DNA of 17,734 nucleotides. Source: a virus. The stretch is from the UHGV virus genome UHGV-1681308; one strand, given 5' to 3'. Positions 618 through 17,734 of the stretch are shown in pieces. A program made the translations under genes and the position numbers. The notes beneath the pieces are model-generated. The model saw only the letters and a program-made list of their open reading frames with translations, made no database searches and was not told where the DNA came from. Position 1 is the first letter of the stretch; each line of letters opens with the position of its first letter.

Positions 618-3102
618 CAAGCATGACTTGACTATGCTGCATGTGCTCAGCTCAGAGAAACTGATGCTGAAGTCGCTGAAGGCTGCCAAGGCAGGGCAGG
701 AACTGTTTCCACCGAGACGTGTACCGCATCTTGATCTGCTGTGGCGACACTTCATACGTTTCGCCATACAATCCAAGAAAGAAGGGCACTGGCTGCAGTG
801 GGACAGACAGGCGTATGTAGCTGACTGCCTCGAAGAACTGAAGCAGCGTGACGACATCAGCGACGAATGCAAAGCGCGATTCCAGGCAATATGCGTACAG
901 TATATCGGCGCTGAGCCATTGGACGCCGAGGCAGGCGACAAGCTGCTGCTGGAAGCTGTCAACGAAGCTATCAGAGCACAGATCAGCAGAGCCGTGTACA
1001 ATTCCGAGGCTTTCGACGGCATCAGACAACTGGTCAATAAAGGCGTCGCGCTGAAGGAGTCGTTGGAGACAGCTGACGAGAAGCAGAAATTGTTTGTGAA
1101 TCCGCTGCTTGAAGTCGAGACTTACCTGCATGTGTTGCCTAAGATGCCTACAGGTGTTCGCTACTTCGACAGAGTCACCAACGGCGGCATGTCTGAGGGC
1201 GAGGTAGCTTTGATTGCTGGATTGATGGGCGGTGGAAAGTGTCTTGGGAAAGACACACCCGTTCTCATGTACGACGGAACTGTAAAGAAAGTTCAGGATG
1301 TACGTGTAGGTGATCAGCTTATTGGTATGGACTCTACACCAAGAACAGTAATGTCTTTAGGTAGAGGTCGCAGTGAAATGTATAAAGTCACACCAGTAAA
1401 AGGTGATCCATTTACAGTTAACAGGTATCATATTCTGACAATGATATGCAGTGGTCCTGTAATATGGAAAGGAGTCAGATATAAACCAGGTGATCTTATT
1501 GATATCTGCGTTGAGGATCTGTACAGGCAATCCGACAGCTTTAAGTCACTTCTTAAGGTTATCAGAACAGGAGTGAACTTTAAACCTAAGGAGGAGCCTG
1601 AGTTAGATCCTTATTTTGTAGGTTTGTATTTGGGAGATGGAACGAAAGGAAAAGCCCAGATCACAACTGGTGACACAGAAGTTGTCGACTACTGTGTTAA
1701 GTATATGCAAGGTTTAGGTTTTGCATGTAATGTATCCAAAGATACTAGACATAACTGCGTTTATGTCAGTATAAGTAGAGCCAGCAACAAAACCGAAGGT
1801 GCGTTAACTATAATTCGTAGGAATACGTTTATAGATGATGAGAAGCGAATTTTGGATGTGTATAAGACTGGAAGCAGAGAGATTCGCATGAAAATACTTG
1901 CGGGTCTAGTTGACTCTGATGGATACACGCACCATGGTTTCCATGAGATAGTTACGAAGTATAGTAATCTAGCAGATGATATATGCTTCGTAGCGCGATC
2001 ATTAGGGTATGCAGCATATGTTAAAAAGTGTGAGAAAAAATGCTATAATACAGGTGCTGCAGGTACGTACTATAAGGTCAGTATATCTGGAGATTTCTCA
2101 GACTTACCTGTTTTGTTACCTAGACATAAGTTGTCAAAACGTAAGCAAGTCAAATCTGTGCTGAGGACAGGATATACTATAACCAAATTACCCGAGGATG
2201 AGTATTATGGGTTTACCATAGATGGTGATCACAGATTTCTTCTGGGTGACTTTACAATTACACATAACACAGCAACAGCAATCCAACTGGTAGGCAGTCA
2301 ACTGCTTGTAGGCAATCCAGTAGCATGGTTCACATTCGAGCAGCCGTTCGATCAGGACCTGATGCAGCGTATGGTATCCTTCATCACAGGCTACAGCCTG
2401 GACATCATACGTGGACGGGAATTCAAGGATCTGCCCGAGGACATTCGGGCAAAGTTTCTCACATTGAGCAACCAAATGTCGGACAAACTGATAGCAGCAG
2501 ACTTCTCGAACAACAACATGCTTGACAAGAACGATCCCGAGGATGATGGCTCTGTTTACAGTCTGTGCAAACGACTTGACATATGGGCTGACCAAGGCAA
2601 AGTGCCAAGCTACATCATGTTCGACTGGGTAGGCGCGGCAGTGAAACGCCTAGCGGCTGTACGCAGCATAGACATCGGGCAGATCACCAACTACATTGCG
2701 CTTGCCAATGAGATCATCGACGGTCTCGTACAGCTTGCCAAGCAGTACCATACGCGTGTAATCTTCTTTCATCAGCTGGATCCGGCGATCAAGAAGTCGC
2801 CTCCGTCCAGGAAGCCTACGACTGTGGAGCTTCAGATGATGAAGACGATGTCGAACTACACGCAGTACGCAATGGCAATCGGCAAGCGTGACGAAAATCA
2901 GCGCTGTTGGTTCATCTGCGACAAGTGCCGTAACAGCTACCCGTCAGAATGCGTCATCGAGCTGGATGGTGCACACGCCAAGTTCAATCTTCTGGAAGGA
3001 TATGCACCAGGCCGCAACGGACAGTTCATAAATATCAACGAGCTGCAGGAGGAGCTCAACGACAACAGTGACACGGCAGACAGCTACCAGCCTATAATCT
3101 GA
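604..3102 (+). CDS. intein-containing P-loop ATPase, probably a DnaB-like (SF4) replicative helicase; extein about 489 aa plus intein 343 aa
   Basis: Walker A GLMGGGK is followed immediately by Cys, and the extein resumes with T after the intein (reconstituted GLMGGGKT). C-extein has a Walker B-like YIMFDWV and a DnaB H4-like RVIFFHQLD. Extein size and P-loop position fit DnaB; a terminase or other RecA-fold ATPase is not excluded. Confidence 0.7.
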   Translation: MIPLDKHDLTMLHVLSSEKLMLKSLKAAKAGQELFPPRRVPHLDLLWRHFIRFAIQSKKEGHWLQWDRQAYVADCLEELKQRDDISDECKARFQAICVQYIGAEPLDAEAGDKLLLEAVNEAIRAQISRAVYNSEAFDGIRQLVNKGVALKESLETADEKQKLFVNPLLEVETYLHVLPKMPTGVRYFDRVTNGGMSEGEVALIAGLMGGGKCLGKDTPVLMYDGTVKKVQDVRVGDQLIGMDSTPRTVMSLGRGRSEMYKVTPVKGDPFTVNRYHILTMICSGPVIWKGVRYKPGDLIDICVEDLYRQSDSFKSLLKVIRTGVNFKPKEEPELDPYFVGLYLGDGTKGKAQITTGDTEVVDYCVKYMQGLGFACNVSKDTRHNCVYVSISRASNKTEGALTIIRRNTFIDDEKRILDVYKTGSREIRMKILAGLVDSDGYTHHGFHEIVTKYSNLADDICFVARSLGYAAYVKKCEKKCYNTGAAGTYYKVSISGDFSDLPVLLPRHKLSKRKQVKSVLRTGYTITKLPEDEYYGFTIDGDHRFLLGDFTITHNTATAIQLVGSQLLVGNPVAWFTFEQPFDQDLMQRMVSFITGYSLDIIRGREFKDLPEDIRAKFLTLSNQMSDKLIAADFSNNNMLDKNDPEDDGSVYSLCKRLDIWADQGKVPSYIMFDWVGAAVKRLAAVRSIDIGQITNYIALANEIIDGLVQLAKQYHTRVIFFHQLDPAIKKSPPSRKPTTVELQMMKTMSNYTQYAMAIGKRDENQRCWFICDKCRNSYPSECVIELDGAHAKFNLLEGYAPGRNGQFININELQEELNDNSDTADSYQPII
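1240..2268 (+). mobile_element. intein (343 aa) with LAGLIDADG homing-endonuclease domain, inserted in the Walker A P-loop
   Basis: N-terminal splicing block CLGKDTPVLMYDGT begins with Cys at 1240. Two LAGLIDADG motifs: YFVGLYLGDGTKG and KILAGLVDSDGYTHH. C-terminal block GFTIDGDHRFLLGDFTITHN is followed by the +1 nucleophile Thr at 2269. The intein DNA looks visibly AT-richer than the flanking extein. Confidence 0.85.
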
Positions 3103-3155
3103 CTTGCATTTTGCTGAATCTGTGCTATATTACTGTCCCTAAAAAGGAGACAGAT

Positions 3156-3659
3156 ATGGACAGATTCAGCACAATATTGCAGACAGCCAAGGCAAACTAC
3201 AGCACAACACATGGCGTTATCCTTAACCTGAGAAGCTCGAACAAACGTATACCGATCACGTTATGCGTATCCACAAGGCGCAACAGAAGTAAGATTGTAC
3301 CTACAGACTGCATTGTCTGGAGTAAGGATCGCATACTGTATCAGGGAACATTGACTGGCAAGCGCCTCAGGAACCTTATAGAGAAGTCTGACTTGTGCTG
3401 CATAGAGGTGACGAATGCTGTGGACATGGATTATGGTCCTGGCAAGTATATATGTCTTAACGATAAAGGTACCTGCCAGTGTACATCATGTCTGTGCCAC
3501 AAGCAGGATGACATCAGCTCAGTCCAGTGCTCAGATGCTGTAGCGTACAGAACAAATGCACTGGATGAACTGTGGCAGCAGGGAATAAAAGAATCAAGAA
3601 AAATACTAAAAGCAAAAAGAAAGGAAGCATTGCGTTATGCAACTGCTTTTTCTGGCTGA
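3156..3659 (+). CDS. hypothetical Cys-rich protein
   Basis: ATG at 3156 with AAGGAG at 3144..3149. The longest ORF begins at 3111, but 3156 has the RBS. No motif recognised. Confidence 0.55.
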   Translation: MDRFSTILQTAKANYSTTHGVILNLRSSNKRIPITLCVSTRRNRSKIVPTDCIVWSKDRILYQGTLTGKRLRNLIEKSDLCCIEVTNAVDMDYGPGKYICLNDKGTCQCTSCLCHKQDDISSVQCSDAVAYRTNALDELWQQGIKESRKILKAKRKEALRYATAFSG

Positions 3660-3936
3660 TGCCGGATCAACAATACACGCCTTTAAGAGCCCTGAAGCAT
3701 GTGTCAACCACGTCTTCAGGGTTTTTGCTGACGCCGGTAAAGGGCCGCATATAGAGAAACAATTATTCAGCAACTCAGATGGACTTCATATGGTAACAGT
3801 GAAGTCGTTCGACAAGAAGAAGGTGCTAGAGTTCATCAAGCAGATGCACCTGCACGCCTCATTCATTGTCGTGCTGAGAAACAGAGAACTGGATACAGAG
3901 GAACGGTACACCATCCGTAAGTCGTACTTAATGTGA
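3637..3936 (+). CDS. hypothetical protein (99 aa)
   Basis: ATG at 3637 with AAGGAAG at 3621..3627. Overlaps the preceding gene by 23 nt. Confidence 0.45.
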   Translation: MQLLFLADAGSTIHAFKSPEACVNHVFRVFADAGKGPHIEKQLFSNSDGLHMVTVKSFDKKKVLEFIKQMHLHASFIVVLRNRELDTEERYTIRKSYLM

Positions 3937-3954
3937 ACAAAATAAGGAGTACTG

Positions 3955-5334
3955 ATGCAAAAAGACATTACAAGATCAACACAGACAACATCCTATGTGA
4001 GAACAAGTATAGTAGACAACGAAGCTGCAGGAACTGATTTCCAGCAGGTTTTCCCATATCAGAAGAAGCTGTTCGGTCGCATTCTGTGGCCCAGCAAGGA
4101 CAGCATCGTGCGTATTGTACCCGGCAATGATGGTACACATACATTCCCGCAGGTAATCAACGCAGATACATGGACCACAGACGGTGACCAGACAAATTAC
4201 CTGTCTGACACTTTCTACATGACATACACTCTCAGCGGTTTCGGTGACAGCAAATGCGATATCTGCAGCAACCTGAAGCCAGGCAGTGATGAAGCCGCTA
4301 TGTATCCTGAATCCCCGCTCAATTACTTCTGCAACAAGATACATCGTACCATGCGGTATGTCTTGCAGGGTAAGGGCACGAAAGTCAGGTACAATGACAA
4401 GTGGCGCATGTGGACAGGGCTGCAAGGTACATTGCCGTTCCCGAAACCTACACTCATGTTCCAGGCTATCTGTGTACATCTGTGCGGAAGGGACTGTCTT
4501 AAGGAGGGCGAGGGAACTGATCCGGCACCTTTGTATGGCGTGATAGGCATCAATAACAAGACATCCATTGGCGAGCTCGTCAAGGCGCTTGTCGCACCCA
4601 TGGACAGACGCAGACCCATCGGTACAAACAACAACACATATGGTGCACTTGCAGAGGCGGCAGGCAACGTACTGTATCTGAACAGCGTCATAGACACTCA
4701 AGAGCACAAGTATCTTCAGCCCAGCATTCAGAGTTCGTCTGCACCTGCAAACAGCTGGGAACCTCAGCAGTACGACCTGACAGAGGACCTGTGCAAGCAG
4801 CTGTGGGTTCCCTGGGATAGAGTGCTGAAATACTATACAGTAAAAGAGCAGCTCGAACTTATAGCGTCTGAGTTTGGCGCTGATACTGTGAATTACGTGT
4901 TCTCTCTGTCTCCGCAGTGGGAAGGTCTGCAGATTCCTGAGCGCATTGCCGCTGTAGGTATGGGGCAGTACGCAGAGAATGCTCAGAGAGCTCCTTCATA
5001 TAGTGCCTTTGGACAGAACGTGCAGAAACAGGCATTTGGCAGTGCTCCCAGACAGGCAGCGCCAGCTTCAACGGCAAGTGCTGTTCCTGGGCTCAGCAGG
5101 GCTGCTCAGCCGTCTTTTGCGCTGCCGAATACGACACCTTTAGCCGGTGGCACTGCAAGTCCTGCTGTAAGCATGGACAGCATCAAAGCAGAGCTGGCAA
5201 AGATCAGAGCGGCCGCCAATACTGCACCCAGTGGAGCGGGAGCATTGGCAAGTGCTATGTTGAACGATCTCGAACTGCCGCCTGATGATGACGTCTACGA
5301 AGCTACAGGTGAGGAAAGTCTGGGAATCGAATAA
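3955..5334 (+). CDS. hypothetical protein (459 aa) with a low-complexity Ala/Ser/Pro region and an acidic C-terminal tail; possibly an ssDNA-binding or other replication accessory protein
   Basis: Strong RBS AAGGAG at 3944..3949 and ATG at 3955. C-terminus ...LELPPDDDVYEATGEESLGIE follows a disordered A/S/P-rich segment. Function is guessed from the tail and the replication-gene neighbourhood only. Confidence 0.6.
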   Translation: MQKDITRSTQTTSYVRTSIVDNEAAGTDFQQVFPYQKKLFGRILWPSKDSIVRIVPGNDGTHTFPQVINADTWTTDGDQTNYLSDTFYMTYTLSGFGDSKCDICSNLKPGSDEAAMYPESPLNYFCNKIHRTMRYVLQGKGTKVRYNDKWRMWTGLQGTLPFPKPTLMFQAICVHLCGRDCLKEGEGTDPAPLYGVIGINNKTSIGELVKALVAPMDRRRPIGTNNNTYGALAEAAGNVLYLNSVIDTQEHKYLQPSIQSSSAPANSWEPQQYDLTEDLCKQLWVPWDRVLKYYTVKEQLELIASEFGADTVNYVFSLSPQWEGLQIPERIAAVGMGQYAENAQRAPSYSAFGQNVQKQAFGSAPRQAAPASTASAVPGLSRAAQPSFALPNTTPLAGGTASPAVSMDSIKAELAKIRAAANTAPSGAGALASAMLNDLELPPDDDVYEATGEESLGIE

Positions 5335-5346
5335 CTAAAACATTCA

Positions 5347-5368
5347 GCCGGGTACTTATGTGCCCGGC
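5347..5368 (+). promoter_or_regulatory. GC-rich stem-loop between the upstream stop and the RBS of the first pentapeptide-repeat gene
   Basis: gccgggta (5347..5354) pairs with tgcccggc (5361..5368) around a 6-nt loop. It lies 3 nt upstream of the AAGGA RBS at 5371..5375. No U-tract follows, so it is not a classic intrinsic terminator. Confidence 0.35.
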
Positions 5369-5383
5369 ATAAGGACAAACAAG

Positions 5384-6406
5384 ATGAAAACAAAAAGAGT
5401 ACTGAAGAAAAACGCAATCAAGGCTTACAAAGCCTTCAACAGTGACCTGACTTGCAAAGGCTTCCGGTATGAAGTCGGCAAGGAATACCACCATAAAGGC
5501 AAGCTTGAGCTGTGCGAGGCAGGCTTCCATGCCTGCCCCAAACTGACTGACTGCTTCAATTTTTACCCGTTCGATAAAACTGAAACCAGAGTGGCCGAGG
5601 TGCTCGTCTGGGGTAAAGTCGAGTACGAAGACATAGGTGACAAGCTCTGCGCCTCAAATATCAAGGTAGTCAGAGAACTTACATGGACAGAGGTGTTGTC
5701 TCTGTGTAACAGCGGCTGCCGTAACAGTGGCTACCGTAACAGCGGCTGCCGTAACAGTGGCAACGGTAACAGTGGCAACCGTAACAGTGGCAACCGTAAC
5801 AGTGGCAACCGTAACAGCGGCTACGGTAACAGCGGCGATTGTAACAGTGGCAACTGGAATAGCGGCAACAATAACAGCGGCAATGGTAACATCGGCCACC
5901 GTAACAGCGGCTGCCGTAACAGTGGCAGCTGGAACAGCGGCGACGGTAACAGTGGCTACTTAAATACTCCGGCACAAAAGTATAGCTTTATTTTTAACAA
6001 ACAAGTTGAAAAGTCAGTCTTGGCTCAGATTGAGTTTCCGGAGTTCATGTGCTTCACTTTGTCAAAATGGATACCTGACTTCATAATGTCACAGCAGGAG
6101 AAAAAGCAGCACCCTGAATACGTTACAACAGGCGGTTATCTCAAGAAGTACACATATAAGGAAGCCTTCAGGAAGTCCTTCGAGGAAGCCAGACGCAAAC
6201 CTGACTGGCCCGAACAGCTTGAGAAGCTGAAATCACTGCCTAACTTCGATGCCAAGGTATTCGAGGAGATATCAGGCATCAAATCAAACGCACTTGGAAT
6301 CAGCGCTAAGGAGCTGGCAGACAAGGCAAAGACAGCCATGGAAGTCACAATGGCGGACATAGAGAAGGTATTCGGTTGCAAAATCAAGATTGTAGAGGAG
6401 AAGTGA
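5384..6406 (+). CDS. pentapeptide-repeat protein (N-x-G-x-x type, about 17 pentads) with conserved Cys/His-containing N-terminal domain and conserved C-terminal domain; paralog 1
   Basis: ATG at 5384 with AAGGA at 5371..5375. Central region is NSGCR NSGYR NSGCR NSGNG NSGNR NSGNR NSGNR and so on. N-terminal VLKKNAIKAYKAFNSDLTCKGFRYEVGK...CEAGFHAC and C-terminal KQHPEYVTTGGY...PDWPEQL...LPNFD.KVFEEISGIK are shared with 10835..11797. Confidence 0.8.
   Translation: MKTKRVLKKNAIKAYKAFNSDLTCKGFRYEVGKEYHHKGKLELCEAGFHACPKLTDCFNFYPFDKTETRVAEVLVWGKVEYEDIGDKLCASNIKVVRELTWTEVLSLCNSGCRNSGYRNSGCRNSGNGNSGNRNSGNRNSGNRNSGYGNSGDCNSGNWNSGNNNSGNGNIGHRNSGCRNSGSWNSGDGNSGYLNTPAQKYSFIFNKQVEKSVLAQIEFPEFMCFTLSKWIPDFIMSQQEKKQHPEYVTTGGYLKKYTYKEAFRKSFEEARRKPDWPEQLEKLKSLPNFDAKVFEEISGIKSNALGISAKELADKAKTAMEVTMADIEKVFGCKIKIVEEK
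5706..5957 (+). repeat. about 17 tandem copies of a 15-bp unit (GTAACAGYGGCNNNN) encoding the pentapeptide repeats, including three consecutive identical units
   Basis: Direct reading: cgtaacagtggcaac occurs three times back-to-back around 5765..5815, flanked by near-identical units. The period of 15 nt (5 codons) keeps the frame. Confidence 0.85.
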
Positions 6407-6407
6407 T

Positions 6408-6806
6408 ATGTCAGCAAATGCTTTCTATCCGCACACAGAAAGGGAACAGTTAGCTCCTTTTGCAAACAAACGTGTGTTGGTAACCGGAAAAGTGCAGCAT
6501 ATTGCAGCGTGGATGTCTGGTAAAAGGTGGGGGTTGCGAGCTACGCTGAAGCAGTGCAGAGTCAAGCATGGTAATATTCAAGTAAGTGTCGACCATTTTA
6601 CAGTCAACGTTGGTAAGCAGTTTATTGCCGTTCAAGCTAAAAGGAACACAACAGTATCTTTCTATGCCACAGTTAAGGCGTACCAGCCTGACAAACAGCT
6701 GAAATATGTACCGGATGATGTCAAGATCGCTCTTGGTTTTACGCCAAGAGTACCATCATATGGTATCAAATGGCCTACAAGGGTCGAGGTGCTCCATCGA
6801 TGCTAG
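6408..6806 (+). CDS. hypothetical protein (132 aa)
   Basis: ATG at 6408 is 1 nt after the stop of the preceding gene, with GAGGAG at 6395..6400. No motif recognised. Confidence 0.6.
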   Translation: MSANAFYPHTEREQLAPFANKRVLVTGKVQHIAAWMSGKRWGLRATLKQCRVKHGNIQVSVDHFTVNVGKQFIAVQAKRNTTVSFYATVKAYQPDKQLKYVPDDVKIALGFTPRVPSYGIKWPTRVEVLHRC

Positions 6807-7288
6807 TACGTGTAATTCCAAGGTACCTTATGGTACAGCTGTATAACAAGCATGTAGAAACTGGCGATACGGATGTGTTTCTTGACGGAAACCACTTTAT
6901 TTCCATTTACAGCACCAGAGATATGTCACCTTTGCCGGATCATCCACACGTATTTAAATTGATGTGCGATGATCTGACACTTGCTGATATGCGCATGTTC
7001 ACAGAGGATGGCTGGAATCATGTTACACTGTTTGATGAGGACATGGCAGACAAGATCGCAGCTTTCATAAAGAGCATTCCTGATACATGCAACTCACTTA
7101 TAGTGCACTGTGATGCAGGTGTCTCAAGATCAGGTGCTATAGGAATACTTGCCAACAGATACTTTAACGATGAAGGCAGCGCTGACGACGAGAAGTTCCA
7201 GCATGATTCGATGCCTTGGCTATCGCCAAACTCGCACATATTGATGCTTCTCAGACCCAGACTGCAAAGAAAGGAAACAAATGTCTAA
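6800..7288 (+). CDS. dual-specificity / protein-tyrosine-type (CX5R) phosphatase
   Basis: Active-site signature VHCDAGVSRSGAIG matches the cysteine-phosphatase P-loop (V)HCxAGxxR(S/T)G. Start is uncertain: the longest ORF begins at 6770 without an RBS; ATG 6800 (GAGGTG upstream, overlaps the previous stop) is preferred; ATG 6830 is also possible. Confidence 0.7.
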   Translation: MLVRVIPRYLMVQLYNKHVETGDTDVFLDGNHFISIYSTRDMSPLPDHPHVFKLMCDDLTLADMRMFTEDGWNHVTLFDEDMADKIAAFIKSIPDTCNSLIVHCDAGVSRSGAIGILANRYFNDEGSADDEKFQHDSMPWLSPNSHILMLLRPRLQRKETNV

Positions 7289-8234
7289 CTTAATCAAAAT
7301 CGGACGCAACAACGAACTCAAGAGAGCCACATTGGAGCTGCCTAAATACGGGGAGCTCACGGACGAGCGCGTAGTACAGGAAATGCGCGGCGTATTTGAC
7401 GGATTCGAATACGACCCAGACACTCAGGTCGAGACTGTGTTCAAAACAGTCGAGCAGATCGAGACTTATGCAGCTGAAGTCAGTAAAGAGCTTGAACAGG
7501 CCGACAATGACTTCAAGATGGCAGCAATCACCAATGCCGGTGCCATTGCAGCCAAGCGCTGGCACTTCGGTTTCATGATCAGCAAGTGCCTCAAGGCTTC
7601 CAAGTATGGTGAAGGGGTCGCCAATAAGATTGCAGCCGCAGCCAACATCTCGCTGCCGTATCTTTATCAGTACAGAGCAGTCGGCGACAATCTCAGTATC
7701 AGAGACGCTTACATCCTTGGTATGTATGGCGCTGGCTGGGATTGTATTCGTCAGGTTGCTGCAGTAAATGATCCCGATACAAGACAGAACCTCATTCAGT
7801 ACTTTGTCCAGTCTATCACGGACTGGAACAACAGTGTCGCCAAAGAGCAGGCTAAAGAGGCACTCAAGTCAGCATTGTCCATGCTGAAGCATGGTCCAGC
7901 CGAACTTGATGTTTCCAGTCCGGCAAAGATTGAGACAGCTGTCAACTTTGAATCCGAAGCTCCTGAATTCATGGAAGCAAAGAAACAGCTGCAGAAGCTG
8001 ATGACAGCATGCAGAGGCATTGTCAAAGATAACAAGCTGTCGCCGATGCTGAAGTCCTTTGGCGACTGTTATCTTGCCGATAATGTCCCCGATGCCGAAG
8101 CGCACCTCGATACACTGCACGAAGATGCGACAGCAGCATTGGAGCTTCTGCAGCAGGTTGAGAGTGTGTTGCCGCAGCTCAAGGAAGAAGTCACAAGCTT
8201 GCAGAATATGGGGCTCAGCCATGCAGACAGTTAA
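7281..8234 (+). CDS. hypothetical protein (317 aa)
   Basis: ATG at 7281 with AAAGGA RBS. Protein-like composition, no motif recognised. Confidence 0.6.
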   Translation: MSNLIKIGRNNELKRATLELPKYGELTDERVVQEMRGVFDGFEYDPDTQVETVFKTVEQIETYAAEVSKELEQADNDFKMAAITNAGAIAAKRWHFGFMISKCLKASKYGEGVANKIAAAANISLPYLYQYRAVGDNLSIRDAYILGMYGAGWDCIRQVAAVNDPDTRQNLIQYFVQSITDWNNSVAKEQAKEALKSALSMLKHGPAELDVSSPAKIETAVNFESEAPEFMEAKKQLQKLMTACRGIVKDNKLSPMLKSFGDCYLADNVPDAEAHLDTLHEDATAALELLQQVESVLPQLKEEVTSLQNMGLSHADS

Positions 8235-8460
8235 TCTTGATGTAGATGTGTCGGACCTTATGTGTCCGCACTGCGGTTCTGTCGACAGTGTCAAGTTGAT
8301 CGACCTTGGACCCGAACGAGATGCAGAGGGCGAATACGGTAACGTCAGATGCACCTGCTATGAGTGCGGCTGGTCGACATGTGACATGGATACAGCAGAG
8401 GACGCAGTGTACGCTTTTATCATCGGTCTCGACTGTGATATCAGGCACGACATAATATGA
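8221..8460 (+). CDS. small zinc-ribbon protein (about 79 aa)
   Basis: CPHCG ... CTCYECG four-Cys pattern. The ORF is open from 8059, but that part overlaps the preceding gene, so the start is placed at ATG 8221. Stop overlaps the next start (ATGA). Confidence 0.45.
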   Translation: MQTVNLDVDVSDLMCPHCGSVDSVKLIDLGPERDAEGEYGNVRCTCYECGWSTCDMDTAEDAVYAFIIGLDCDIRHDII

Positions 8461-8657
8461 AACCGATAGGCTACGGGAAGCTCACCAAGTTCCTCAAAGC
8501 CACAGCACCGATATCAAAGCAGTTTGAGAACGAAGTTCTGCGGGATGAGCGTCTCGCAGAACTTTTTTCGTGTGTAGCTGAGGTTGTGCTGCCGAAAGCT
8601 ACAGAACCGCAGAGATGGGCGTTGTGGCAGTGTTTCAAGGGTCTGAAAGGCGTTTAA
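8457..8657 (+). CDS. hypothetical protein (66 aa)
   Basis: ATG at 8457 overlapping the upstream stop. Ends 27 nt before the IStron left end. Confidence 0.45.
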   Translation: MKPIGYGKLTKFLKATAPISKQFENEVLRDERLAELFSCVAEVVLPKATEPQRWALWQCFKGLKGV

Positions 8658-8683
8658 CAACGCCCTTTAACCAGTGATGGCTA

Positions 8684-9110
8684 TCGAACAAGAAAGTGAA
8701 TTGCTAATAGATCCCAAGAGCCTCACGACGCCTGTAACAAGGATCGAAAGAGAAAACAAAGAAGTGAGGATACCGCAAGGCGACAGTAAGCCTAAACGGG
8801 AGTGACAACGGACGTTTAGCAGCCGAGCCATGCGTTCGACAGAACGCCAGCGCATGGAAGGTTCATCGACTATCCCAGATGGGAGTACCCGAGTAGCCAT
8901 GCTGCGACAGCAGCAAAAGTAAGGGGAAGCACTCTGGCTCAGGAATGAGTCAATGATATAGTCAGTGCTTCATGGAAACATGAAGAGTGGTCTCCTATTG
9001 ACACGGAGAAACCTGCTGTTACCCTGGCAAGGTACAGTGAACAGAACCATGGTCTCATTAAATGCAACATTAATTTGACGTTTTGATTTTCTGTATAAGG
9101 ATGTATATTA
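8684..9110 (+). ncRNA. putative group I intron ribozyme core (IStron intron module)
   Basis: R-like element GTTCATCGACTATCC (8861..8875) and S-like element GATATAGTC (8955..8963) can form P7 (GACTA/TAGTC). Several hairpins lie between them and upstream (ctaaacg/cgtttag at 8792..8819, gcgttc-gaca-gaacgc at 8832..8847, gctgc-gaca-gcagc at 8901..8914). No ORF. Not verified by a covariance model. Confidence 0.5.
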
Positions 9111-9132
9111 TCTGTATACAATAAGGAGTGCC

Positions 9133-10218
9133 ATGTACAGAGCCCACAAGATACGCATAGATTGCACAAGAGAGCAGCACAGCCTGTTAATGCAGACTGC
9201 TGGCTGCGCTCGTTATGCGTACAATTGGGGACTCGATAAGTGGGGCAAGATGTACGAAGCCTGGAAGGCTGATGCCTCGCAGGAGAAACCGGACAGATAT
9301 TCTGTAGCCAGACAGTGGACACAGGAGAAACCAGAGTGGGCAAATAAGACATCCAGAAGTCCAGTTGACTACTCTTTTATCAACCTCGGCACCGCCTTCA
9401 AGAACTTCTCAAGGCGCAAAACAAAGTACCCGAAGAAGCACAAGAGGTCACAGGGAATCTCATTCCAAGTGGCACCTGACAAGGCAGCTATAGTTGACAA
9501 CCAACTTAGACTGCCTAACATAGACTACGTGAAGCTCCGAGAGACTCCACGCTTCCAGGGCAAGATAACAGGCTACACAGTTCAGTACATAGCTTCCCAC
9601 TGGTACGTTACAATCGCCTTCGACTGTCCAGACGTCCCAAAAGAAGCACCGGAGTCCGTCGTCGGTATCGACGTAGGACTCCAGCACCCTGCTGTAGCCT
9701 CCGATGGCACCAAACTAGAGCTCCCCATAGAGAAGCTCCAAAAGCTCGAAGTCAAGAAACGTAGAGCACAGCGAGCCCTCAGCAGGAGCAAGAGAAACTC
9801 CAATGCGCGAAAGCGCAAGCGTACCAAACTCCAGCGTATACAACAGAAGATTACCAACATCCGTCAGGATGCAGCCCACAAGTTTACAACTACGGTGAGC
9901 AAAAACCACGCCACTGTAGTCACAGAAGATCTGGACATAAGTGAGCTCCAAAAGAAGGCCCCCGCACGTTCAGTGCGCAGAGCATACAACAGCTCCCTTA
10001 TGGGAACCATTCTTTGGCAGATCTCGTACAAAGCGGTGCACCATATCAAGGCACCAAAGTACTTTCCGAGCACCAAGAGATGCTCAACTTGTGGACATGT
10101 GAAGGAGGCTATGCCTCCGAACGTCAGGACATATCATTGCGACCACTGCGGTACACATCTCGATAGAGATGAGAACGCAGCTCGCAACTTGATGTTGCAA
10201 CCGTGGGTCACACGGTAA
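9133..10218 (+). CDS. tnpB: TnpB (OrfB) RuvC-like RNA-guided nuclease, IS200/IS605 family
   Basis: 361 aa. N-terminus MYRAHKIRIDCTREQHSLL...RYAYNWGL. RuvC-I GIDVGL, RuvC-II VVTEDLD, zinc finger CSTCGH...CDHCG, RuvC-III DRDENAARNL. RBS AAGGAG at 9123..9128. Confidence 0.9.
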   Translation: MYRAHKIRIDCTREQHSLLMQTAGCARYAYNWGLDKWGKMYEAWKADASQEKPDRYSVARQWTQEKPEWANKTSRSPVDYSFINLGTAFKNFSRRKTKYPKKHKRSQGISFQVAPDKAAIVDNQLRLPNIDYVKLRETPRFQGKITGYTVQYIASHWYVTIAFDCPDVPKEAPESVVGIDVGLQHPAVASDGTKLELPIEKLQKLEVKKRRAQRALSRSKRNSNARKRKRTKLQRIQQKITNIRQDAAHKFTTTVSKNHATVVTEDLDISELQKKAPARSVRRAYNSSLMGTILWQISYKAVHHIKAPKYFPSTKRCSTCGHVKEAMPPNVRTYHCDHCGTHLDRDENAARNLMLQPWVTR

Positions 10219-10326
10219 GAGGCGCGGTGATGGTACAGGCAGCATTCGCTGCAGGTACCAGATGATCCGCGAAGACAATCCGGTGTAACGCCGGATGAGA
10301 TCATGACAGTGCGTGTAACACATCGA
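10120..10326 (+). ncRNA. putative TnpB omega RNA (reRNA) scaffold overlapping the tnpB 3' end, plus about 16 nt of flank as guide (gcgtgtaacacatcga)
   Basis: Scaffold conserved with the copy at 1..119, including a hairpin at 10232..10259 with compensatory stem changes and a second conserved hairpin atccggtg-taa-cgccggat. Conservation ends exactly at 10310. The 5' boundary is a guess. Confidence 0.5.
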
Positions 10327-10834
10327 CATATAGTGTCCTGTATCTGCAGAGCAGCAGCAAACCTGCACTACATCCACGAGGGTATCGCACCCTTCTATTG
10401 GGATGGCAACAGGGCAGCTGCTGTGATGAATTGTCTAGGTATAGAACAAGATGTAGCCGCTAAAGGAAAGCGCAGACTGCTAGTGCATTTGATGTGTCTG
10501 CTGGGTGAACCTGCCGGACTGATGTTCAAGGTATCTCTGAGCTGCAACATGCTGGAGTACTTGCTGGGCAAACATTTTGGCGTCTCTTTTCGAAAGTATA
10601 ATGCAGCGGCTGAAGAGATCGCCGGTTGTGTCTTCAAGTGCACAGTAAGTGAGGACACAGCAGGGGCCTATCTAGCGGATTTCAGCGCAACACAAGCTAT
10701 GAAAGACCACAACAGAAAGCTGGCAGAGATGCGCATAAACCCAAGAAAATGTAAAACACCTGCAATGCCATGTGCATCCTGTACTAAAACCAGGGCTCAG
10801 TGCATTTTGGCATGTAAAGTTAAGGACAAACAAA

Positions 10835-11797
10835 ATGAAAACAGAAAAAGTACTGAAGAAAAATGCAATCAAGGCCTATAAAGCCTTCAACAGCGACCTG
10901 ACCTGCAGAGGCTTCCAATATGAAGTCGGTAAGACCTACAGACATATATTCCTAATCCGCTGTTGCGAGTCAGGATTCCATGCTTGTGAAAGGCTGGTTG
11001 ACTGCTTTGGCTACTATGAACCAAACCAAGCAAAAACTCGAATTTGCGAGGTTCTGGTCTGGGGCGATATTCAGAGGCATGATAAAGACACCAAGTTATG
11101 CGCATCCAGAATCCATATTGTCAAAGAGTTGTCCTGGAACAAAGTATGTCGTCTATGCAATAATACCGGCATCGGCAATCAGGGCTTATATAACTCTGGG
11201 AATTATAACAGTGGAAACTCAAATTCCGGTAACTGGAATGCAGGCAATAACAACAAAGGTAAGTACAATTCAGGTGATTGTAACATTGGTTTAGGTAATG
11301 TAGGCACAGGCAATATAGGCAATAATAACTGTGGCCAATATAATTACGGTCATAGGAATTCCGGAAACAATAACATAGGATGCCGCAATGTAGGAAACTA
11401 CAATACGGGCTACTATAATGTCGGTAACTGGAACAAAGGGTCGTTTAATATCGGCTGCTTCAATACAGCAGATGCCATTGTACATATGTTTAACAAGCCT
11501 GTTGTCGGAATCAGTCCATTCGATATTTTAGTCCCAGGTTTCTGCATCTTTGATACGACAGAATGGGTGTCGGCCAGATGTATGACAGATGAAGAAAAGA
11601 AGCAGCACCCTGAGTACGTTACAACAGGAGGATACCAAAAACAATACGCCTACAAGGAAGCCTTCAGGAAGTCCTTCGAGAAGGCAAAGCGACTCCCAGA
11701 TTGGCCCGAACAGCTTAAGAGGCTAAAGGCGCTGCCGAATTTCGATGTAAAGGTATTTGAGGAGATATCAGGTATCAAGGAAGAGGAACTTATGTAA
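10835..11797 (+). CDS. pentapeptide-repeat protein (degenerate N-x-G-x-x repeats), paralog 2 of 5384..6406
   Basis: ATG at 10835 with AAGGA at 10822..10826; the RBS and first ~110 nt are roughly 90% identical to paralog 1. Repeat region GNYNSGNSNSGNWNAGNNNKGKYNSGDCNIGLGNVGTGNIGNNN... The conserved C-terminal domain ends ...FEEISGIKEEELM. Confidence 0.8.
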   Translation: MKTEKVLKKNAIKAYKAFNSDLTCRGFQYEVGKTYRHIFLIRCCESGFHACERLVDCFGYYEPNQAKTRICEVLVWGDIQRHDKDTKLCASRIHIVKELSWNKVCRLCNNTGIGNQGLYNSGNYNSGNSNSGNWNAGNNNKGKYNSGDCNIGLGNVGTGNIGNNNCGQYNYGHRNSGNNNIGCRNVGNYNTGYYNVGNWNKGSFNIGCFNTADAIVHMFNKPVVGISPFDILVPGFCIFDTTEWVSARCMTDEEKKQHPEYVTTGGYQKQYAYKEAFRKSFEKAKRLPDWPEQLKRLKALPNFDVKVFEEISGIKEEELM

Positions 11798-12688: not shown

Positions 12689-13287
12689 CTGTAGACGATT
12701 TGGTTATGTTCGATACCAAGAAGCTTCTTGACTTCTTTAAGATAGATCAGTGCCCTGACTGGGCAGAGTGGGTCGCTGTAGATAGTGATGGAACGGTCTG
12801 TTATTATTCTGCTGAACCTACTATACTTAATACTTATAAGGATGAATGGAGGTGTGAAACAGTTAGACATAACTTTCGACCTGTCAGGATAAATGGCAAT
12901 AATATTAAAATTACTGTCGAGGACTGGACAAAAGCGAAAGTCAAGAGGCCTCCTACAGGCAATGAAATGTTTCTTGGTAAGTGCAGAAACATTTATGTCC
13001 ACATGAAAGACTCTAAGTATGTAGTTGCTTTCGAGTGCCGCACAGAGGATACCTATGACAACGATAGCTATTATTTGGAATTGACAGTCGAATTGGCAGC
13101 AGAGATATTCTCGAGAGACTTAGGGCATATCATTGCTGAGTGGCTGGGTAAGGATGTGTCTGTAGAAACCGAAGGTTCACATATTCGCAGTGCTCTTCAG
13201 TCCAGTATACCTGAAGCTTTCTCAGCCGCAGTTACTGATGTTCGTCTGTCATCAGGGCCAGGCACGAAAGGTCTGTGCAAAATATGA
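12685..13287 (+). CDS. CPDWA-motif protein (200 aa), paralogous domain to 11808..12149
   Basis: ATG at 12685 with GAGGAGG at 12671..12677. Motif DQCPDWAEWVAVDSDGTVCYY near the N-terminus. AT-richer than its neighbours. Confidence 0.6.
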   Translation: MTVDDLVMFDTKKLLDFFKIDQCPDWAEWVAVDSDGTVCYYSAEPTILNTYKDEWRCETVRHNFRPVRINGNNIKITVEDWTKAKVKRPPTGNEMFLGKCRNIYVHMKDSKYVVAFECRTEDTYDNDSYYLELTVELAAEIFSRDLGHIIAEWLGKDVSVETEGSHIRSALQSSIPEAFSAAVTDVRLSSGPGTKGLCKI

Positions 13288-13324
13288 AAACACTCAAAGA
13301 TTAAAGTAACAGAGAGGAGAATGT

Positions 13325-14665
13325 ATGAAAAAAGGACTCGGAAACCTGCTGGATGCACTCAGTAAGGCAGACGGCGGCGTCAGTATGTCCATTACAGAAT
13401 TCAAAGAAGCCCAGTACGGCATTCCGCTTAAGCATTACTGTTTGCAGTATCTTTTCGGCAGCACCGGGCTCAGGTACGGCGGCTTTTATCTGCTTGCCGG
13501 TAAGCCGAAGTCGTGCAAATCGCCCTTTGCTTTCTTCCTTGCACATCTCAGCTGCGAGAATGATGGCATTGCATATGTGTACGAACTTGAAGGCAAGGCG
13601 TCACCGACGTTGCTGACCAGCATGTTTGCAGACAGGCCCGAATGGCGAGAGGATGGCGGCCCTTTCAAGCTCATCCGAGGACTGACATTGGACGGCGCCG
13701 AGAAGCACCTTACAAAGTCTGTGCTCAAACTTTTCAAGCAGTACGAGGTTTACGATACTCCGCTGCTGATCGACTGGGACTCCATCTCAGGAGCTGCGAT
13801 GTCAGATGTCGTGTCCAAGATCGAGAAGGAAGGCGTAGCCAGTAAAGGCTACTATGAAAAAGCGCACATCATGAAGCATCTGACAGAGAGCTGGGTCGCA
13901 CTTACCAACAACATGCCTGTCGTGTTCGTCGGCGTCTTGCAGGAAAAGGAAAAGGCTGCAGAGGGATGGGCACCTGCAGGCGGACCGCAGAAGTCGTATG
14001 GCGGTGGCGATTCGCAGTTGTTCAAGGCAGGTACATTACTGTCGTTCTCTCACAGCACGCTGCAGAACGGTGCTGGCAAGCTCGTTCGTATCAAGACTGC
14101 ACTGAACGGATTTGCAGACAGCAGAGGCATTGAAGTAAAGTTTGTCTGGGATCAGTTCGGCGACCTTGAGACCGATTCACAGGGGCACAAGTGGCTTTTC
14201 GCAGAGGCGACGGCAAAGTGCCTCGCACAGCCGAAGATCGTAGGCGAGCTCAGAGACATCATTGATGTGAAGATCAATGATTCCGGCGACAGAGTGACTT
14301 GCAAGACGTTCGGTCTTGACAAGGTTACAGCAACAGAGTTCGAGGAAGCCCTGTTTGCGCCTGAGAACGCCAAGGTACTGGAAGATCTGTACAGATACCA
14401 AAAGATAGAAAAGATCAAGCTGCCCTCAGAGTATGCAGCTTACGCCGAGAAAGCAGGAGACAAGGAAGCCGCATATAAAGAGGCGCAGAAGCAGGCACAG
14501 CTCGAAGAGCGTGAGGCCAAGGCTGCGGAAGCTGCCGCAAAGGAAGCAGCCAAGCAGGCAAAACGAGAGGCGAAAGTCAAGAAGTCAGCTGCGGCATCCA
14601 ATCCGTTAGCGGCTTTAGCAGACATGGCAAAGAAAGCTGAGGCATCAGATGCAAAAGCTGAATAA
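13325..14665 (+). CDS. RecA-family recombinase, UvsX-like, with a Lys/Ala/Glu-rich low-complexity C-terminal tail
   Basis: Variant Walker A LLAGKPKSCKS resembles the T4 UvsX GPSKSFKS type. Walker B-like PLLIDWDS. L2-like GGPQKSYGGGDSQLFKAG. YVYELEGKASPTLLTSMFADRPEW resembles the UvsX segment after Walker A. RBS GAGGAG at 13314..13319. Confidence 0.7.
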   Translation: MKKGLGNLLDALSKADGGVSMSITEFKEAQYGIPLKHYCLQYLFGSTGLRYGGFYLLAGKPKSCKSPFAFFLAHLSCENDGIAYVYELEGKASPTLLTSMFADRPEWREDGGPFKLIRGLTLDGAEKHLTKSVLKLFKQYEVYDTPLLIDWDSISGAAMSDVVSKIEKEGVASKGYYEKAHIMKHLTESWVALTNNMPVVFVGVLQEKEKAAEGWAPAGGPQKSYGGGDSQLFKAGTLLSFSHSTLQNGAGKLVRIKTALNGFADSRGIEVKFVWDQFGDLETDSQGHKWLFAEATAKCLAQPKIVGELRDIIDVKINDSGDRVTCKTFGLDKVTATEFEEALFAPENAKVLEDLYRYQKIEKIKLPSEYAAYAEKAGDKEAAYKEAQKQAQLEEREAKAAEAAAKEAAKQAKREAKVKKSAAASNPLAALADMAKKAEASDAKAE

Positions 14666-14990
14666 CAAGCGCGTGTTCTGTACACCTTACGACGATCAGC
14701 GTATCGTGACAGCAAAAATCAAGAACGAAAAACACTATGTACTGAAAGCATGTCCGTTCTGCGGACGCAAGCCGGTAATCGAGACAGTGGAGCCGATATT
14801 CCATGATGATAAAGTCCAGTACTTTGTCTCATGTGCGCACCACGGCTGCGACTGCTACACAAGAACCTATCGCAGCCCAGGTGAGGCAATCGCGAAATGG
14901 AACAGACGCATCAGTCCGCTCGATCGCATTGTCGCTTCTGACTTGAAACGCAGTCTTAAAGCAGCGCAGAAAGAGGCGACAAATGTGTGA
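14649..14990 (+). CDS. Lar-family restriction-alleviation-like small Cys protein (putative anti-restriction)
   Basis: CPFCG ... SCAHHGCDC ... EAIAKWNRR matches the pattern I recall for Lar-family proteins (CPFCG zinc motif, conserved AW-NRR near the C-terminus). The identification rests on recalled motifs, not a search. Confidence 0.5.
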   Translation: MQKLNNKRVFCTPYDDQRIVTAKIKNEKHYVLKACPFCGRKPVIETVEPIFHDDKVQYFVSCAHHGCDCYTRTYRSPGEAIAKWNRRISPLDRIVASDLKRSLKAAQKEATNV

Positions 14991-15684
14991 TACATCAGAG
15001 TGGCCCACTACAGCTCAGGCTGTCAAGGAAATGATGACCGAAGTCTGTGATAAGAACCTGTTCGATTCAGGCGGCGCTTACGGATACGCCTACGAGCGTA
15101 GGGCCAATTGTGACAAGGAACCTGAATTCAAGACACATTACGAGCTCCTCGACAACGGCAAGTTGTACATAGAGGCTACGAAAAGCATGTACTGGCATCT
15201 TGTGAACACTTGTCAGTACAGACACGACCTCACTGTTATGCTGGATGCATATGCGGATCTCAAAGACGAGCGCTACGGAACATGTCTTGGTGAGGACTTC
15301 TTCGCCTCGTTTGGTCTCAAGTCAGGGTCAGACAATACATGCAACACTGAGACTATGCTGGACGGTACGTTTCTGTTCACGCATGCATACATCAGCGATG
15401 AAGCGACAGACCTTTTCGTGATCAGCACACACAATGGCTGTGACGTCAGATCTGGTTACAGCAGCGCCAAAGTATTCGAGAGTCCGGACGCTGAAGTCCT
15501 GTACAGCTTGGACAGTGCAAATCTTATGTGTCACAGATGTGATATACAGTTCGACCTGTCATCCAGTGGTACACGGACACTTGATCCTGACCAGTTCAGA
15601 CTCGAAAAGAACGATGACTTGCCGTACTTTGTTGATGGTAAACTGTACTGCCCAAAGTGCCACAAGCCGCTGGAGGTGTCCTGA
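14983..15684 (+). CDS. hypothetical protein with C-terminal zinc-ribbon-like CxxC...CxxC
   Basis: ATG at 14983 with AAGAGG RBS. MCHRCD ... CPKCHKP at the C-terminus. Confidence 0.55.
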   Translation: MCDTSEWPTTAQAVKEMMTEVCDKNLFDSGGAYGYAYERRANCDKEPEFKTHYELLDNGKLYIEATKSMYWHLVNTCQYRHDLTVMLDAYADLKDERYGTCLGEDFFASFGLKSGSDNTCNTETMLDGTFLFTHAYISDEATDLFVISTHNGCDVRSGYSSAKVFESPDAEVLYSLDSANLMCHRCDIQFDLSSSGTRTLDPDQFRLEKNDDLPYFVDGKLYCPKCHKPLEVS

Positions 15685-16160
15685 TGCCGAATGCACAGCT
15701 TATGGCTGCGCTGCACGCAAGTACCAAAGCGTTGCGTGAAATGGCACGCGACGACGCCACATACGACTTCGTGTATGCGCACAAAAACATGTTCGTCGGC
15801 AACAGAGAAGCCTTCAAGTCTGCTGTAGCCGCGTGTCAGGAGCGCTCAGGCAGAGAGCTGCTTGACAAGCTGGATCTGCAAGAGATCTGCATCGAGAAAG
15901 TAACCGAAGCAGAACTGCTGCACAGCTGCTACTACTTTGTCGACAGTCCACTGTATAAGCGCTTCATTCAGCTCACCAGCAGGCATGGCGGCATAGGTAC
16001 GGCAATCTTCGTCGTCAACAAGCGAGGCGTTGTTGTCACTAATAAGTACAGTCTGGACGCCTACGTACGGGTCAAGCATGTACTTGGCAGCACCGGTAAG
16101 TTGCCTGACATCATGTGGGCGCCAATAGAAGACCTTAAAGGTTTCACGTTCTACAACTAA
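15684..16160 (+). CDS. hypothetical protein (158 aa)
   Basis: ATG at 15684 overlaps the upstream stop (TGATG), with GGAGGTG at 15672..15678. Confidence 0.55.
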   Translation: MPNAQLMAALHASTKALREMARDDATYDFVYAHKNMFVGNREAFKSAVAACQERSGRELLDKLDLQEICIEKVTEAELLHSCYYFVDSPLYKRFIQLTSRHGGIGTAIFVVNKRGVVVTNKYSLDAYVRVKHVLGSTGKLPDIMWAPIEDLKGFTFYN

Positions 16161-16169
16161 GGAGGTTGG

Positions 16170-17734
16170 ATGCTGGAAACAAAAGTCATGTTCAATGCCA
16201 CAGAGCTCACAATCAAAGTGTCTGTGTGGGCACGGGGCGACCCGTTCCCTGCTATTGGGCATGCTGTAGGTATAGACACAGAAACCGAACTTATTACGGA
16301 CGCCGAGCTTACGCCGCCATTGGTTGTACTCGGCGTTTTCAATCCTGCCGACATGACTTGCTACCAGATAGCATGGAGTGATGCACAGTACTTCATGCAG
16401 GAGCTGCTTAAGCGTGACTGCAAGCTGTACTTCGCCAATGCAGGGTTCGACTACTTCGAGCTGGAGAGTGATGAGCTTCGGGATGCGGTCAGCAATGACC
16501 GTCTCGTAGACTTGCTCATCAGAGCTCCGCTTAAAGAGATCGCCACTATAGGGTACATCAGAACGCACAGCCTGAAGGACGCCTGCCAATGGCATCTCAA
16601 TTACGAGATGGACAAACATGAGGACGAAGGCGACCAGGCAGCTCGTGTCACGTTCCGCAGGAACAAAGACATCACAGATGAGCAGCGCATTTACCTGGCA
16701 ATCGACTGCGCGGCTACTTATTACGGGTGCGAGGCGATTGGTCCTCAGGCGACAGAGTGTACACATACACGCGGTCAGATAGTCCTGTATCATATCAGCA
16801 AGAACGGTTTTCCGTACGACCCGTACATGTTCGACTACTGCGAGAAGCTGCTGCAGCAGCATATGGATCAGTATCGTGCAGAGCTCATCACGTACGGGTA
16901 TCCGGATCCGTACAAGAAAGATATGCCCACTGAAATCAAGCAGCTGCAGGACGGCTGGCCTATGTTCAGGGACGCCTGGTTCGCTGCGCATATCAAAGAA
17001 AAGTACCAGTTCGAGGACTCGCTGCCAGGCAAGAGCACAGTAAAGCGCATACTGCTGTACGGCACTGCGTATATGCAGCACGGTACAGATAAAGGCACTC
17101 TGGCGCGGGTGTTCGCAGCATTGCTGCTGCAGGACAAGAACCTGTCCAAAAAGGAACAGGCTGCATATGACCAGCTGGTGGAGGAGCACGACTTCCTGGA
17201 TGCCTGCAATGGTATCGGCAAGAAGGAGGTTTGGCCGACGCTGCTGGTCGCGTGGATGCGTGCCGAGATGGACGGCAAGGACATCGCTGGCATATGGCAG
17301 GCAGTGGACGATGCGGTGCAGGACCATCCGCAATGGTTCTGTACTGAGGAGCCTGTCAAGCCCAAGGCATTCATGCAGGACCACCTGCGGGAACTGCAGG
17401 AAAAGTACCCTGGACTGGAGTTCGACAAGACGCTTAAGTCAGGTGAGCTGAAGTGCTCAAAGAAGGACGCGTGGAAGCTGGCGGATGCGGGGGTGAACGA
17501 TCCGTTGCTGACCGCGTACGTGAACTTTGGTCATGTGCAAAAGTACAAGTCGTCGTTCACGAACAGGGAATACCTCAGGAGCGACGGCAGAGTAAGGTGC
17601 CGCTTTGGCATCGTGGAGAGCGGTCGGTTTGGCCGCTTCACACCGCGAGGTGTGTCGAACAAGAAAGTGAATTGCTGGAACACCTTAACGGGTAACGCCG
17701 AAGGCAATCAGCAGCCGAGCCTTGTATCGAGAGA
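16170..17734 (+). CDS. family-A DNA polymerase, N-terminal part (3'-5' exonuclease domain plus start of polymerase domain); runs off the window and is probably interrupted by an IStron from about 17655
   Basis: Strong RBS TAAGGAGG at 16158..16165. Exo I VGIDTETE, Exo II NAGFDYFEL, Exo III YLAIDCAATYY. The frame stays open to the window end; the track omits it only because it has no stop in the window. From 17655 the DNA matches the IStron 5' end, so sequence beyond about 17654 is probably intron, not exon. Confidence 0.65.
   Translation, partial: MLETKVMFNATELTIKVSVWARGDPFPAIGHAVGIDTETELITDAELTPPLVVLGVFNPADMTCYQIAWSDAQYFMQELLKRDCKLYFANAGFDYFELESDELRDAVSNDRLVDLLIRAPLKEIATIGYIRTHSLKDACQWHLNYEMDKHEDEGDQAARVTFRRNKDITDEQRIYLAIDCAATYYGCEAIGPQATECTHTRGQIVLYHISKNGFPYDPYMFDYCEKLLQQHMDQYRAELITYGYPDPYKKDMPTEIKQLQDGWPMFRDAWFAAHIKEKYQFEDSLPGKSTVKRILLYGTAYMQHGTDKGTLARVFAALLLQDKNLSKKEQAAYDQLVEEHDFLDACNGIGKKEVWPTLLVAWMRAEMDGKDIAGIWQAVDDAVQDHPQWFCTEEPVKPKAFMQDHLRELQEKYPGLEFDKTLKSGELKCSKKDAWKLADAGVNDPLLTAYVNFGHVQKYKSSFTNREYLRSDGRVRCRFGIVESGRFGRFTPRGVSNKKVNCWNTLTGNAEGNQQPSLVSR
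17655..17734 (+). mobile_element. 5' terminus of a second IStron-like element (group I intron module) inside the polymerase gene; truncated by the window edge
   Basis: 17655..17676 is identical (22/22) to the left end at 8684..8705. The downstream block agcagccgagcc and the taacggg segment are shared with 8792..8830. This copy lacks an ~85-nt segment present at 8706..8790. Confidence 0.5.

Follow-up and report, generated by a model that had tools for sequence, protein, structure and literature searches.

In a 17,734-nt stretch of the virus genome UHGV-1681308, analyzed over its full length (hereafter, the window), a short open reading frame (ORF) in the replication region is a genuine, selectively maintained gene, and there is little doubt that the 113-aa protein it encodes belongs to the Lar family of restriction alleviation proteins. 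The gene is an accessory occupant of its slot in what looks like a translationally coupled operon with recombinase and DNA polymerase genes. We tentatively favor an anti-restriction role for the product, by homology with the founding member of the family. As an annotation, this is an ordinary homology-based assignment of a very common phage domain.

The preliminary description of this DNA had drawn attention to a small ORF overlapping the stop of a recombinase gene and encoding the motifs CPFCG, HHGCDC and AKWNRR, and these observations were all borne out. The frame opens with an ATG at position 14649, upstream of the recombinase TAA (14663-14665), leaving 17 nt common to the two genes, and its product, MQKLNNKRVFCTPYDDQRIVTAKIKNEKHYVLKACPFCGRKPVIETVEPIFHDDKVQYFVSCAHHGCDCYTRTYRSPGEAIAKWNRRISPLDRIVASDLKRSLKAAQKEATNV, carries the three motifs at residues 35–39, 64–69 and 82–87, respectively (the coordinates of all features are collected in Table 1). 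Alleles 96–99% identical to this gene are present in the Logan contig L001 and in three contigs of IMG/VR (L003, L004 and L005); the IMG/VR contigs carrying Lar-like relatives reach 95 kb, for the genome IMGVR_UViG_3300045988_177579, and 192 kb. Separately, we observed that the L003 contig (192,052 bp) is about twice the length of the L004 contig (95,043 bp), which suggests a genome of about 95 kb assembled as a concatemer in the longer contig. Across the five natural variants (the window, L001, L003, L004 and L005), codon differences are overwhelmingly synonymous, with 19 synonymous and three non-synonymous differences between the window and L001, and the mean ratio of non-synonymous to synonymous substitution rates (dN/dS, Nei-Gojobori method) is 0.089 in the annotated frame, whereas in the +1 frame it exceeds 1 or is undefined. 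Thus, the pattern of divergence among close relatives marks the ORF as a real gene.

An ORF that is short and overlaps both of its neighbors, as this one does, could in principle be spurious or decaying, a chance frame arising from overlap with real genes. In line with this possibility, one variant, P0002 (99 aa, from an ENA contig), is the same as the Lar-like protein for about 50 residues and then becomes wholly different, as if frameshifted; this pattern is consistent with either an assembly error or a pseudogenized copy. However, the Pfam match of the window protein (E = 1.9e-10), the contrast in dN/dS between the frames, the 245 member sequences in its 90%-identity cluster and the conservation of a full-length protein in another lineage (P0003, 104 aa, 41–45% identical, with the N-terminal extension kept) effectively refute this explanation, to which we assign a negligible probability.

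Profile searches supported the Lar assignment that had been proposed from the motifs. The protein matches Pfam PF14354 (Lar_restr_allev) with 41.3 bits (gathering score, 28.6) over residues 32–87 and profile positions 3–57 of 58, and PHROG 599, 'Lar-like restriction alleviation protein', with 43.2 bits (E = 1e-10) over residues 28–99. An exhaustive HMMER search of 1.84 billion representative proteins yielded 238 matches at E <= 1e-3, nearly all of which align solely to residues ~32–89. Three giant proteins among these matches (P0004, P0020 and P0046) were rejected as family members, being surface proteins with leucine-rich repeats (LRR) or HYR domains and Cys-rich repeats. Among short homologs aligned in sets of 52 and 66, the columns corresponding to C35, P36, C38, C62, C67, W84 and R87 are invariant and those of F37, G39, A80 and N85 at least 90% conserved, and the window protein carries all these residues. 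Accordingly, it displays both the family cysteine pattern, CPxCG ... C-x(2-4)-C, with C35, C38, C62 and C67 as putative zinc ligands, and the helix signature A-x3-W-N-[RK]-R (A80, W84, N85, R86 and R87). Compared directly by BLASTP with the Lar/RalR protein of E. coli K-12 (from NC_000913), the window protein is 36% identical over 58 residues. Elsewhere in the window, a plus-strand ORF of ~79 aa (8221-8460), which overlaps the stop of ORF 7281..8234, encodes another zinc ribbon (CPHCG ... CTCYEC ... AEDAVYAF) with a weak Lar-family profile match (E = 7e-5), no WNxR and no Pfam Lar match; this ORF is kept in L003 and L004.

The AlphaFold2 (AF2) model of the protein, with a predicted local distance difference test score (pLDDT) of 79, has a zinc-ribbon topology, with a beta-hairpin (residues 42–47 and 57–62) and helices at residues 16–24, 77–84 and 90–112. 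The core is thus predicted to comprise the CPFCG knuckle, the hairpin, a C62-x4-C67 knuckle and a short helix that ends in the family signature WN[RK]R (WNRR in this case), and the protein is probably a small zinc ribbon with four cysteine ligands (C4). The C-x4-C variant of the second knuckle recurs in other homologs. The N-terminal extension, modeled as disordered over residues 1–14 and helical over 16–24, is conserved only within the protein's own small clade (two 50%-identity clusters) and is seen in nearly none of the 238 homologs; the C-terminal helix (residues 90–112) is predicted with pLDDT of about 83–92, and a comparable tail is found in a minority of homologs. The protein is basic, with an isoelectric point (pI) of 9.4, and nearly all of the predicted viral structures closest to it bear the annotation 'restriction alleviation protein'.

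Table 1. Features of the Lar-like gene and its neighborhood in the window.
Feature	Position	Strand	Basis
UvsX/RecA-like recombinase candidate, 446 aa	13325..14665	+	PHROG 97; 66% identical to L011 gene
Putative Shine-Dalgarno-like motif GAGG, 6 nt 5' of the Lar-like ATG	14639..14642	+	Read from sequence
Gene for the Lar-family zinc-ribbon protein, 113 aa (coordinates include the stop codon)	14649..14990	+	ORF list, PF14354, PHROG 599, dN/dS
17 nt shared by the Lar-like start and the recombinase-like ORF, up to the TAA stop of the latter	14649..14665	+	Sequence
N-terminal extension, residues 1–31, lineage-specific, includes C11	14649..14741	+	Kept in P0003
Lar_restr_allev core, residues 32–89	14742..14915	+	Pfam and NCBIfam alignment ranges, invariant columns
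C-terminal tail, residues 90–113, one long basic helix (predicted)	14916..14987	+	AF2
8-nt overlap ATGTGTGA of the Lar-like TGA (14988-14990) with the ATG (14983) of the 233-aa gene	14983..14990	+	Sequence
Conserved 233-aa protein, function unknown	14983..15684	+	PHROG 11344
167-aa ORF of unknown function	15657..16160	+	Syntenic: L006 36%, L011 29% identity
Family-A DNA polymerase (PolA) gene, first part	16173..17614	+	PHROG 17; 61% identical to L006 PolA (PF00476)

The recombinase, Lar-like, 233-aa, 167-aa and PolA genes look like one translationally coupled rightward operon, because starts and stops overlap and no sigma-70-like promoter or intrinsic-terminator consensus was found within 13300-16400. 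The Lar-like gene had been placed between the recombinase and the polymerase, which is loosely correct, but it does not directly adjoin the polymerase gene, given that two ORFs (233 and 167 aa) intervene. The label 'recombinase' comes from a single profile: the upstream protein matches PHROG 97, 'UvsX-like recombinase', with E = 3e-13, whereas Pfam, NCBIfam and a sequence search of the PDB were silent. The 233-aa protein downstream contains the motifs DSGGAYGY, DNTYN, THNGCDxRxGY and a C-terminal CxxC...CxxC, with DSGGAYGY and THNGCDxRxGY invariant; its AF2 model is confident, and structure and fold search with it found no relative and no functional clue.

Comparison with related contigs reveals three versions of this module. 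In the window lineage, the order is recombinase, Lar-like, 233 aa, 167 aa, PolA; in L006-L010, it is DUF7666, DUF7666, Lar-like, 233 aa, 159 aa, PolA; and in L011/L012, it is recombinase, 237 aa, 156 aa, YopX, PolA, with no Lar-like ORF and the recombinase gene running straight into the 237-aa gene. The L006 lineage keeps the 8-nt overlap between the Lar-like and 233-aa genes (3139-3453 and 3446-4147), and the Lar-like proteins of the window and L006 are 41% identical, comparable to the 44%, 36% and 61% identity for the 233-aa, 167-aa and PolA proteins, respectively, so that the Lar-like gene was inherited vertically with its neighbors. For the same reason, recent mobility in the manner of a free-standing homing nuclease was rejected. 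Conserved adjacency of the recombinase and Lar-like genes was rejected as well, because two DUF7666 genes (804-2018 and 2034-3071) lie directly 5' of the Lar-like gene in L006. L011/L012 retain the module (their recombinase and 233-aa homolog are 66% and 40% identical to those of the window) without a Lar-like gene; the gene is therefore accessory, conserved where present and dispensable for the module. Among 50,697 GenBank phages, no relatives were detected by megablast of the region or by tblastn with the Lar-like protein, the PolA fragment or the recombinase.

What the Lar-like protein does can be addressed primarily by reference to the founding member, Rac Lar, to which the experimental knowledge is confined. 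King & Murray (1995), as cited in later work, reported that Lar alleviates EcoKI restriction and enhances modification, and a preprint on PhageMaP reports that the importance of a Lar homolog to phage Bas63 is conditional on the restriction systems of the host (PMC11482910). By analogy, the window protein may blunt host restriction, the possibility that we consider the leading one although it falls short of an even chance. Because the gene is part of one operon and coupled at both ends, its product would be synthesized alongside the proteins of replication and recombination, presumably during phage DNA replication, when the DNA is still unmodified. It would then work not as an enzyme but as a binding module, dampening host restriction of this unmodified DNA. 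Type I restriction-modification (R-M) is the target documented for Lar (restriction alleviated, modification enhanced), and other restriction nucleases are possible targets. The functional surface around WN[KR]R is retained, because positions 37, 49, 51 and 52 of RalR, at which mutation abolishes its activity, correspond in the BLASTP alignment to T71, K83, N85 and R86 here. The distribution of the gene, present in two lineages and absent in a third, is the pattern expected of a counter-defense gene. The position of Rac lar next to a recombinase gene, recT, which parallels that of the window gene, also counts in favor of this role.

Several considerations weigh against such a role. The function is transferred from a single characterized protein across 36% identity over 58 residues. 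The window protein narrowly misses the cutoff of NCBIfam TIGR03655 (anti_R_Lar; 37.8 bits against 39.6, E = 1.8e-9) and falls far below that of the RalR equivalog NF007260 (15.7 against 113 bits), a cutoff at or above which the same function can be assumed, whereas RalR itself scores 55.3 bits on TIGR03655 and 53.5 bits on PF14354; because of these two shortfalls, we regard the protein, on profile scores, as a divergent member of the Pfam-level family and not an orthologue of RalR. The founder has also been reported as a Mg/Ca-dependent DNase toxin, so that more than one molecular activity has been ascribed to the family. Family members occur in very diverse contexts, also as tandem repeats, which suggests a generic binding module with varied targets. 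Finally, the location in a replication module and the coupling to a conserved gene of unknown function suit an accessory role in replication or recombination equally well.

Under that last alternative, the zinc ribbon would bind DNA, the recombinase, the 233-aa protein or PolA, and 'Lar' would be merely the name of a fold and family, with no anti-restriction role implied. The gene is embedded in, and coupled to, the block of recombinase, 233-aa, 167-aa and PolA genes; gene order and the 8 nt shared with the 233-aa gene persist at 41–44% identity; the protein is basic and bears a weak structural and profile likeness to Elf1, TFIIB, Ogr/Delta and the primase zinc ribbon; and in the Rac prophage, lar likewise lies 3' of recT. 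All this would fit an accessory factor, but the L011/L012 lineage keeps the recombinase, the 233-aa homolog, the 156-aa gene and PolA without a Lar-like gene, which is therefore dispensable for the module. Moreover, other family members reside in unrelated contexts, for instance beside a terminase gene or among nin-like small genes. We rate an accessory replication or recombination factor as unlikely, albeit the most credible competitor of restriction blunting. An activity of the RalR type is more doubtful still. In this case, the gene would encode a small, non-specific endonuclease that requires metal and damages or degrades host DNA, as a toxin or a host-takeover nuclease, and relief of restriction could come about indirectly, through damage-induced alleviation. 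RalR has been reported to cut methylated and unmethylated DNA in the presence of Mg2+/Ca2+, with the K52Q mutant inactive, to depend for toxicity on positions 14, 37, 39, 49, 51 and 52, and to be neutralized by the small RNA (sRNA) RalA (PMC4041452), and the window protein has an equivalent of WN[KR]R and retains four of the six toxicity positions, conserved or conservatively replaced. Nevertheless, no acidic or His residue is conserved across the family, with E79 present in 34 of 66 sequences; the score of 15.7 bits lies far below the equivalog cutoff of 113; no nuclease fold was found among the structural matches of the protein; and a non-specific DNase co-translated with phage replication genes would endanger the phage DNA itself. 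No RalA-like antisense partner was detected either: no complementary stretch involving the ORF exceeds 13 nt (92% identity, 2.1 kb away), no minus-strand promoter consensus lies near the ORF, and no Rfam family matched in the window in the search for such an RNA, leaving room for a novel sRNA. The missing conserved acidic or His residue and the missing RalA-like element argue against nuclease activity as a general property of the family. In our assessment, then, a non-catalytic binder that blunts restriction ranks first, followed by an accessory factor, a RalR-type DNase and, far behind, an artefactual ORF, with the remaining probability left to other functions.

A more speculative proposal, which we consider a long shot, is that the Lar-like and 233-aa proteins act as a two-protein unit, in which the Lar domain would be an optional adaptor linking an uncharacterized enzyme of the replication module to a host or phage target. 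The overlap and gene order preserved at 41–44% identity, and the position of Rac lar, also after a recombinase gene, speak for such a unit, but in L011 the 233-aa gene occurs without the Lar gene. If the proposal is correct, the Lar family would have a role in recombination-coupled protection of replicating DNA, not in simple inhibition of Type I R-M.

The window also contains several other features outside the Lar-like gene. A 1657-nt insertion at about 8653..10309, absent at the same site in L003 and L005, starts with a full-length match to the group I intron (8642..8985; Rfam RF00028, E = 8.7e-6, with 31.9 bits where the gathering score is 50) and encloses a TnpB gene (9133..10218; OrfB_IS605 and Cas12f-like TNB). 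The interrupted gene, which encodes 239 aa and is whole in L003 (5198..5917; ...CFKGLNGV|RVTQRHIV...), is broken in frame by the insertion into 8457..8657 and 10303..10881. By sequence, this combination of intron and TnpB matches the IStron-like elements, a known class, here inserted within a phage protein-coding gene; a further copy is present at a different location in L004 (732-2226). The PolA gene is also interrupted, from about 17615 to the end of the window (17734), by group I intron sequence, a position mapped from L003, in which the equivalent region (12967-13741) contains two Intron_gpI matches in tandem, scoring 40.9 bits (E = 2e-8) and 37 bits (E = 3e-7). The PolA frame of the window probably reads through into the intron over its final ~40 codons; L006 has an uninterrupted PolA (823 aa), and that of L011 appears to be split. 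Furthermore, an 832-aa primase/helicase-like ORF (604-3102, plus strand; PHROG DnaB-like helicase, KaiC-type ATPase) contains an intein at roughly residues 213–497, with Hom_end_hint (E = 8e-22) and a LAGLIDADG homing endonuclease domain, and the product of a 172-aa ORF (6770-7288, plus strand) weakly resembles the catalytic domain of dual-specificity phosphatases (DSPc; E = 3.9e-5), scoring 23.9 bits, under the cutoff of 33.5. Paralogous proteins with an N-terminal DUF7666 domain and pentapeptide repeats are encoded on the plus strand at 5360..6406 and 10772..11797. Because pentapeptide-repeat proteins are known DNA mimics, these could be further counter-defense candidates.

Should the Lar-like protein indeed relieve restriction, its gene would join the candidate counter-defense genes, in an uncultivated lineage of large phages with genomes apparently of about 95 kb. 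The Lar label, attached to very many phage genomes, rests on one 1995 genetic study, and the two conflicting descriptions of the founder, as a modulator of Type I R-M and as a DNase toxin, are left standing by the present gene. The window protein provides a divergent, extended variant for much-needed biochemistry on the family. In practical terms, the finding is of modest value, as a marker of an accessory slot within this lineage's replication operon, filled in two sub-lineages and empty in a third.

Among known systems, zinc ribbons of the Elf1, TFIIS and TFIIB types score below significance and have only the Cys knuckles in common with the window protein, a generic zinc-ribbon likeness and not membership. 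Some phage proteins share the PF14354 domain in tandem or fused form, with three copies in P0006, two in P0007 to P0011 and a helix-turn-helix (HTH) fusion in P0035; all 57 longer homologs scanned match PF14354. Unlike these, the window protein combines a single Lar domain with non-repeat extensions and has neither a second copy nor an HTH. The neighbors of four diverse family members, mostly on very short contigs, are heterogeneous (RusA, MazG, terminase, DUF559), and no recurrent partner gene was found around them. To our knowledge, Ral of phage lambda is not a sequence homologue of Lar, and the proposed phenotype that the two share is a functional analogy only. Ral alleviates Type IA restriction by speeding the methylation of unmodified DNA (review PMC12707154), and King & Murray (1995) reported that Lar resembles Ral in function.

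The founder of PF14354 and TIGR03655 is Lar/RalR (b1348, 64 aa), from the Rac prophage; a tblastn search with it of the 50,697 GenBank phages retrieved only seven near-identical Rac-type copies. It and the window protein have the domain in common, including the CPFCG first knuckle, another pair of cysteines and a WN[KR]R-terminated helix, but the window protein is longer (113 aa), with a 31-aa N-terminal extension and a 24-aa C-terminal helix, and where RalR has C-x2-C as the second knuckle, it has C-x4-C, with HH inserted and Cys69 in addition. RalR has the RNA antitoxin RalA as a partner in Rac, whereas no RalA-like RNA was found for the window gene. The genomic settings differ too, a lambdoid prophage in one case and the replication operon of a large uncultivated phage in the other. 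Yet ralR lies directly 3' of recT, in the same orientation, just as the Lar-like gene lies directly 3' of the UvsX-like gene, although the recombinases themselves are different, RecT in Rac and RecA/UvsX-like in the window. The resemblance between the two loci is suggestive without being diagnostic.

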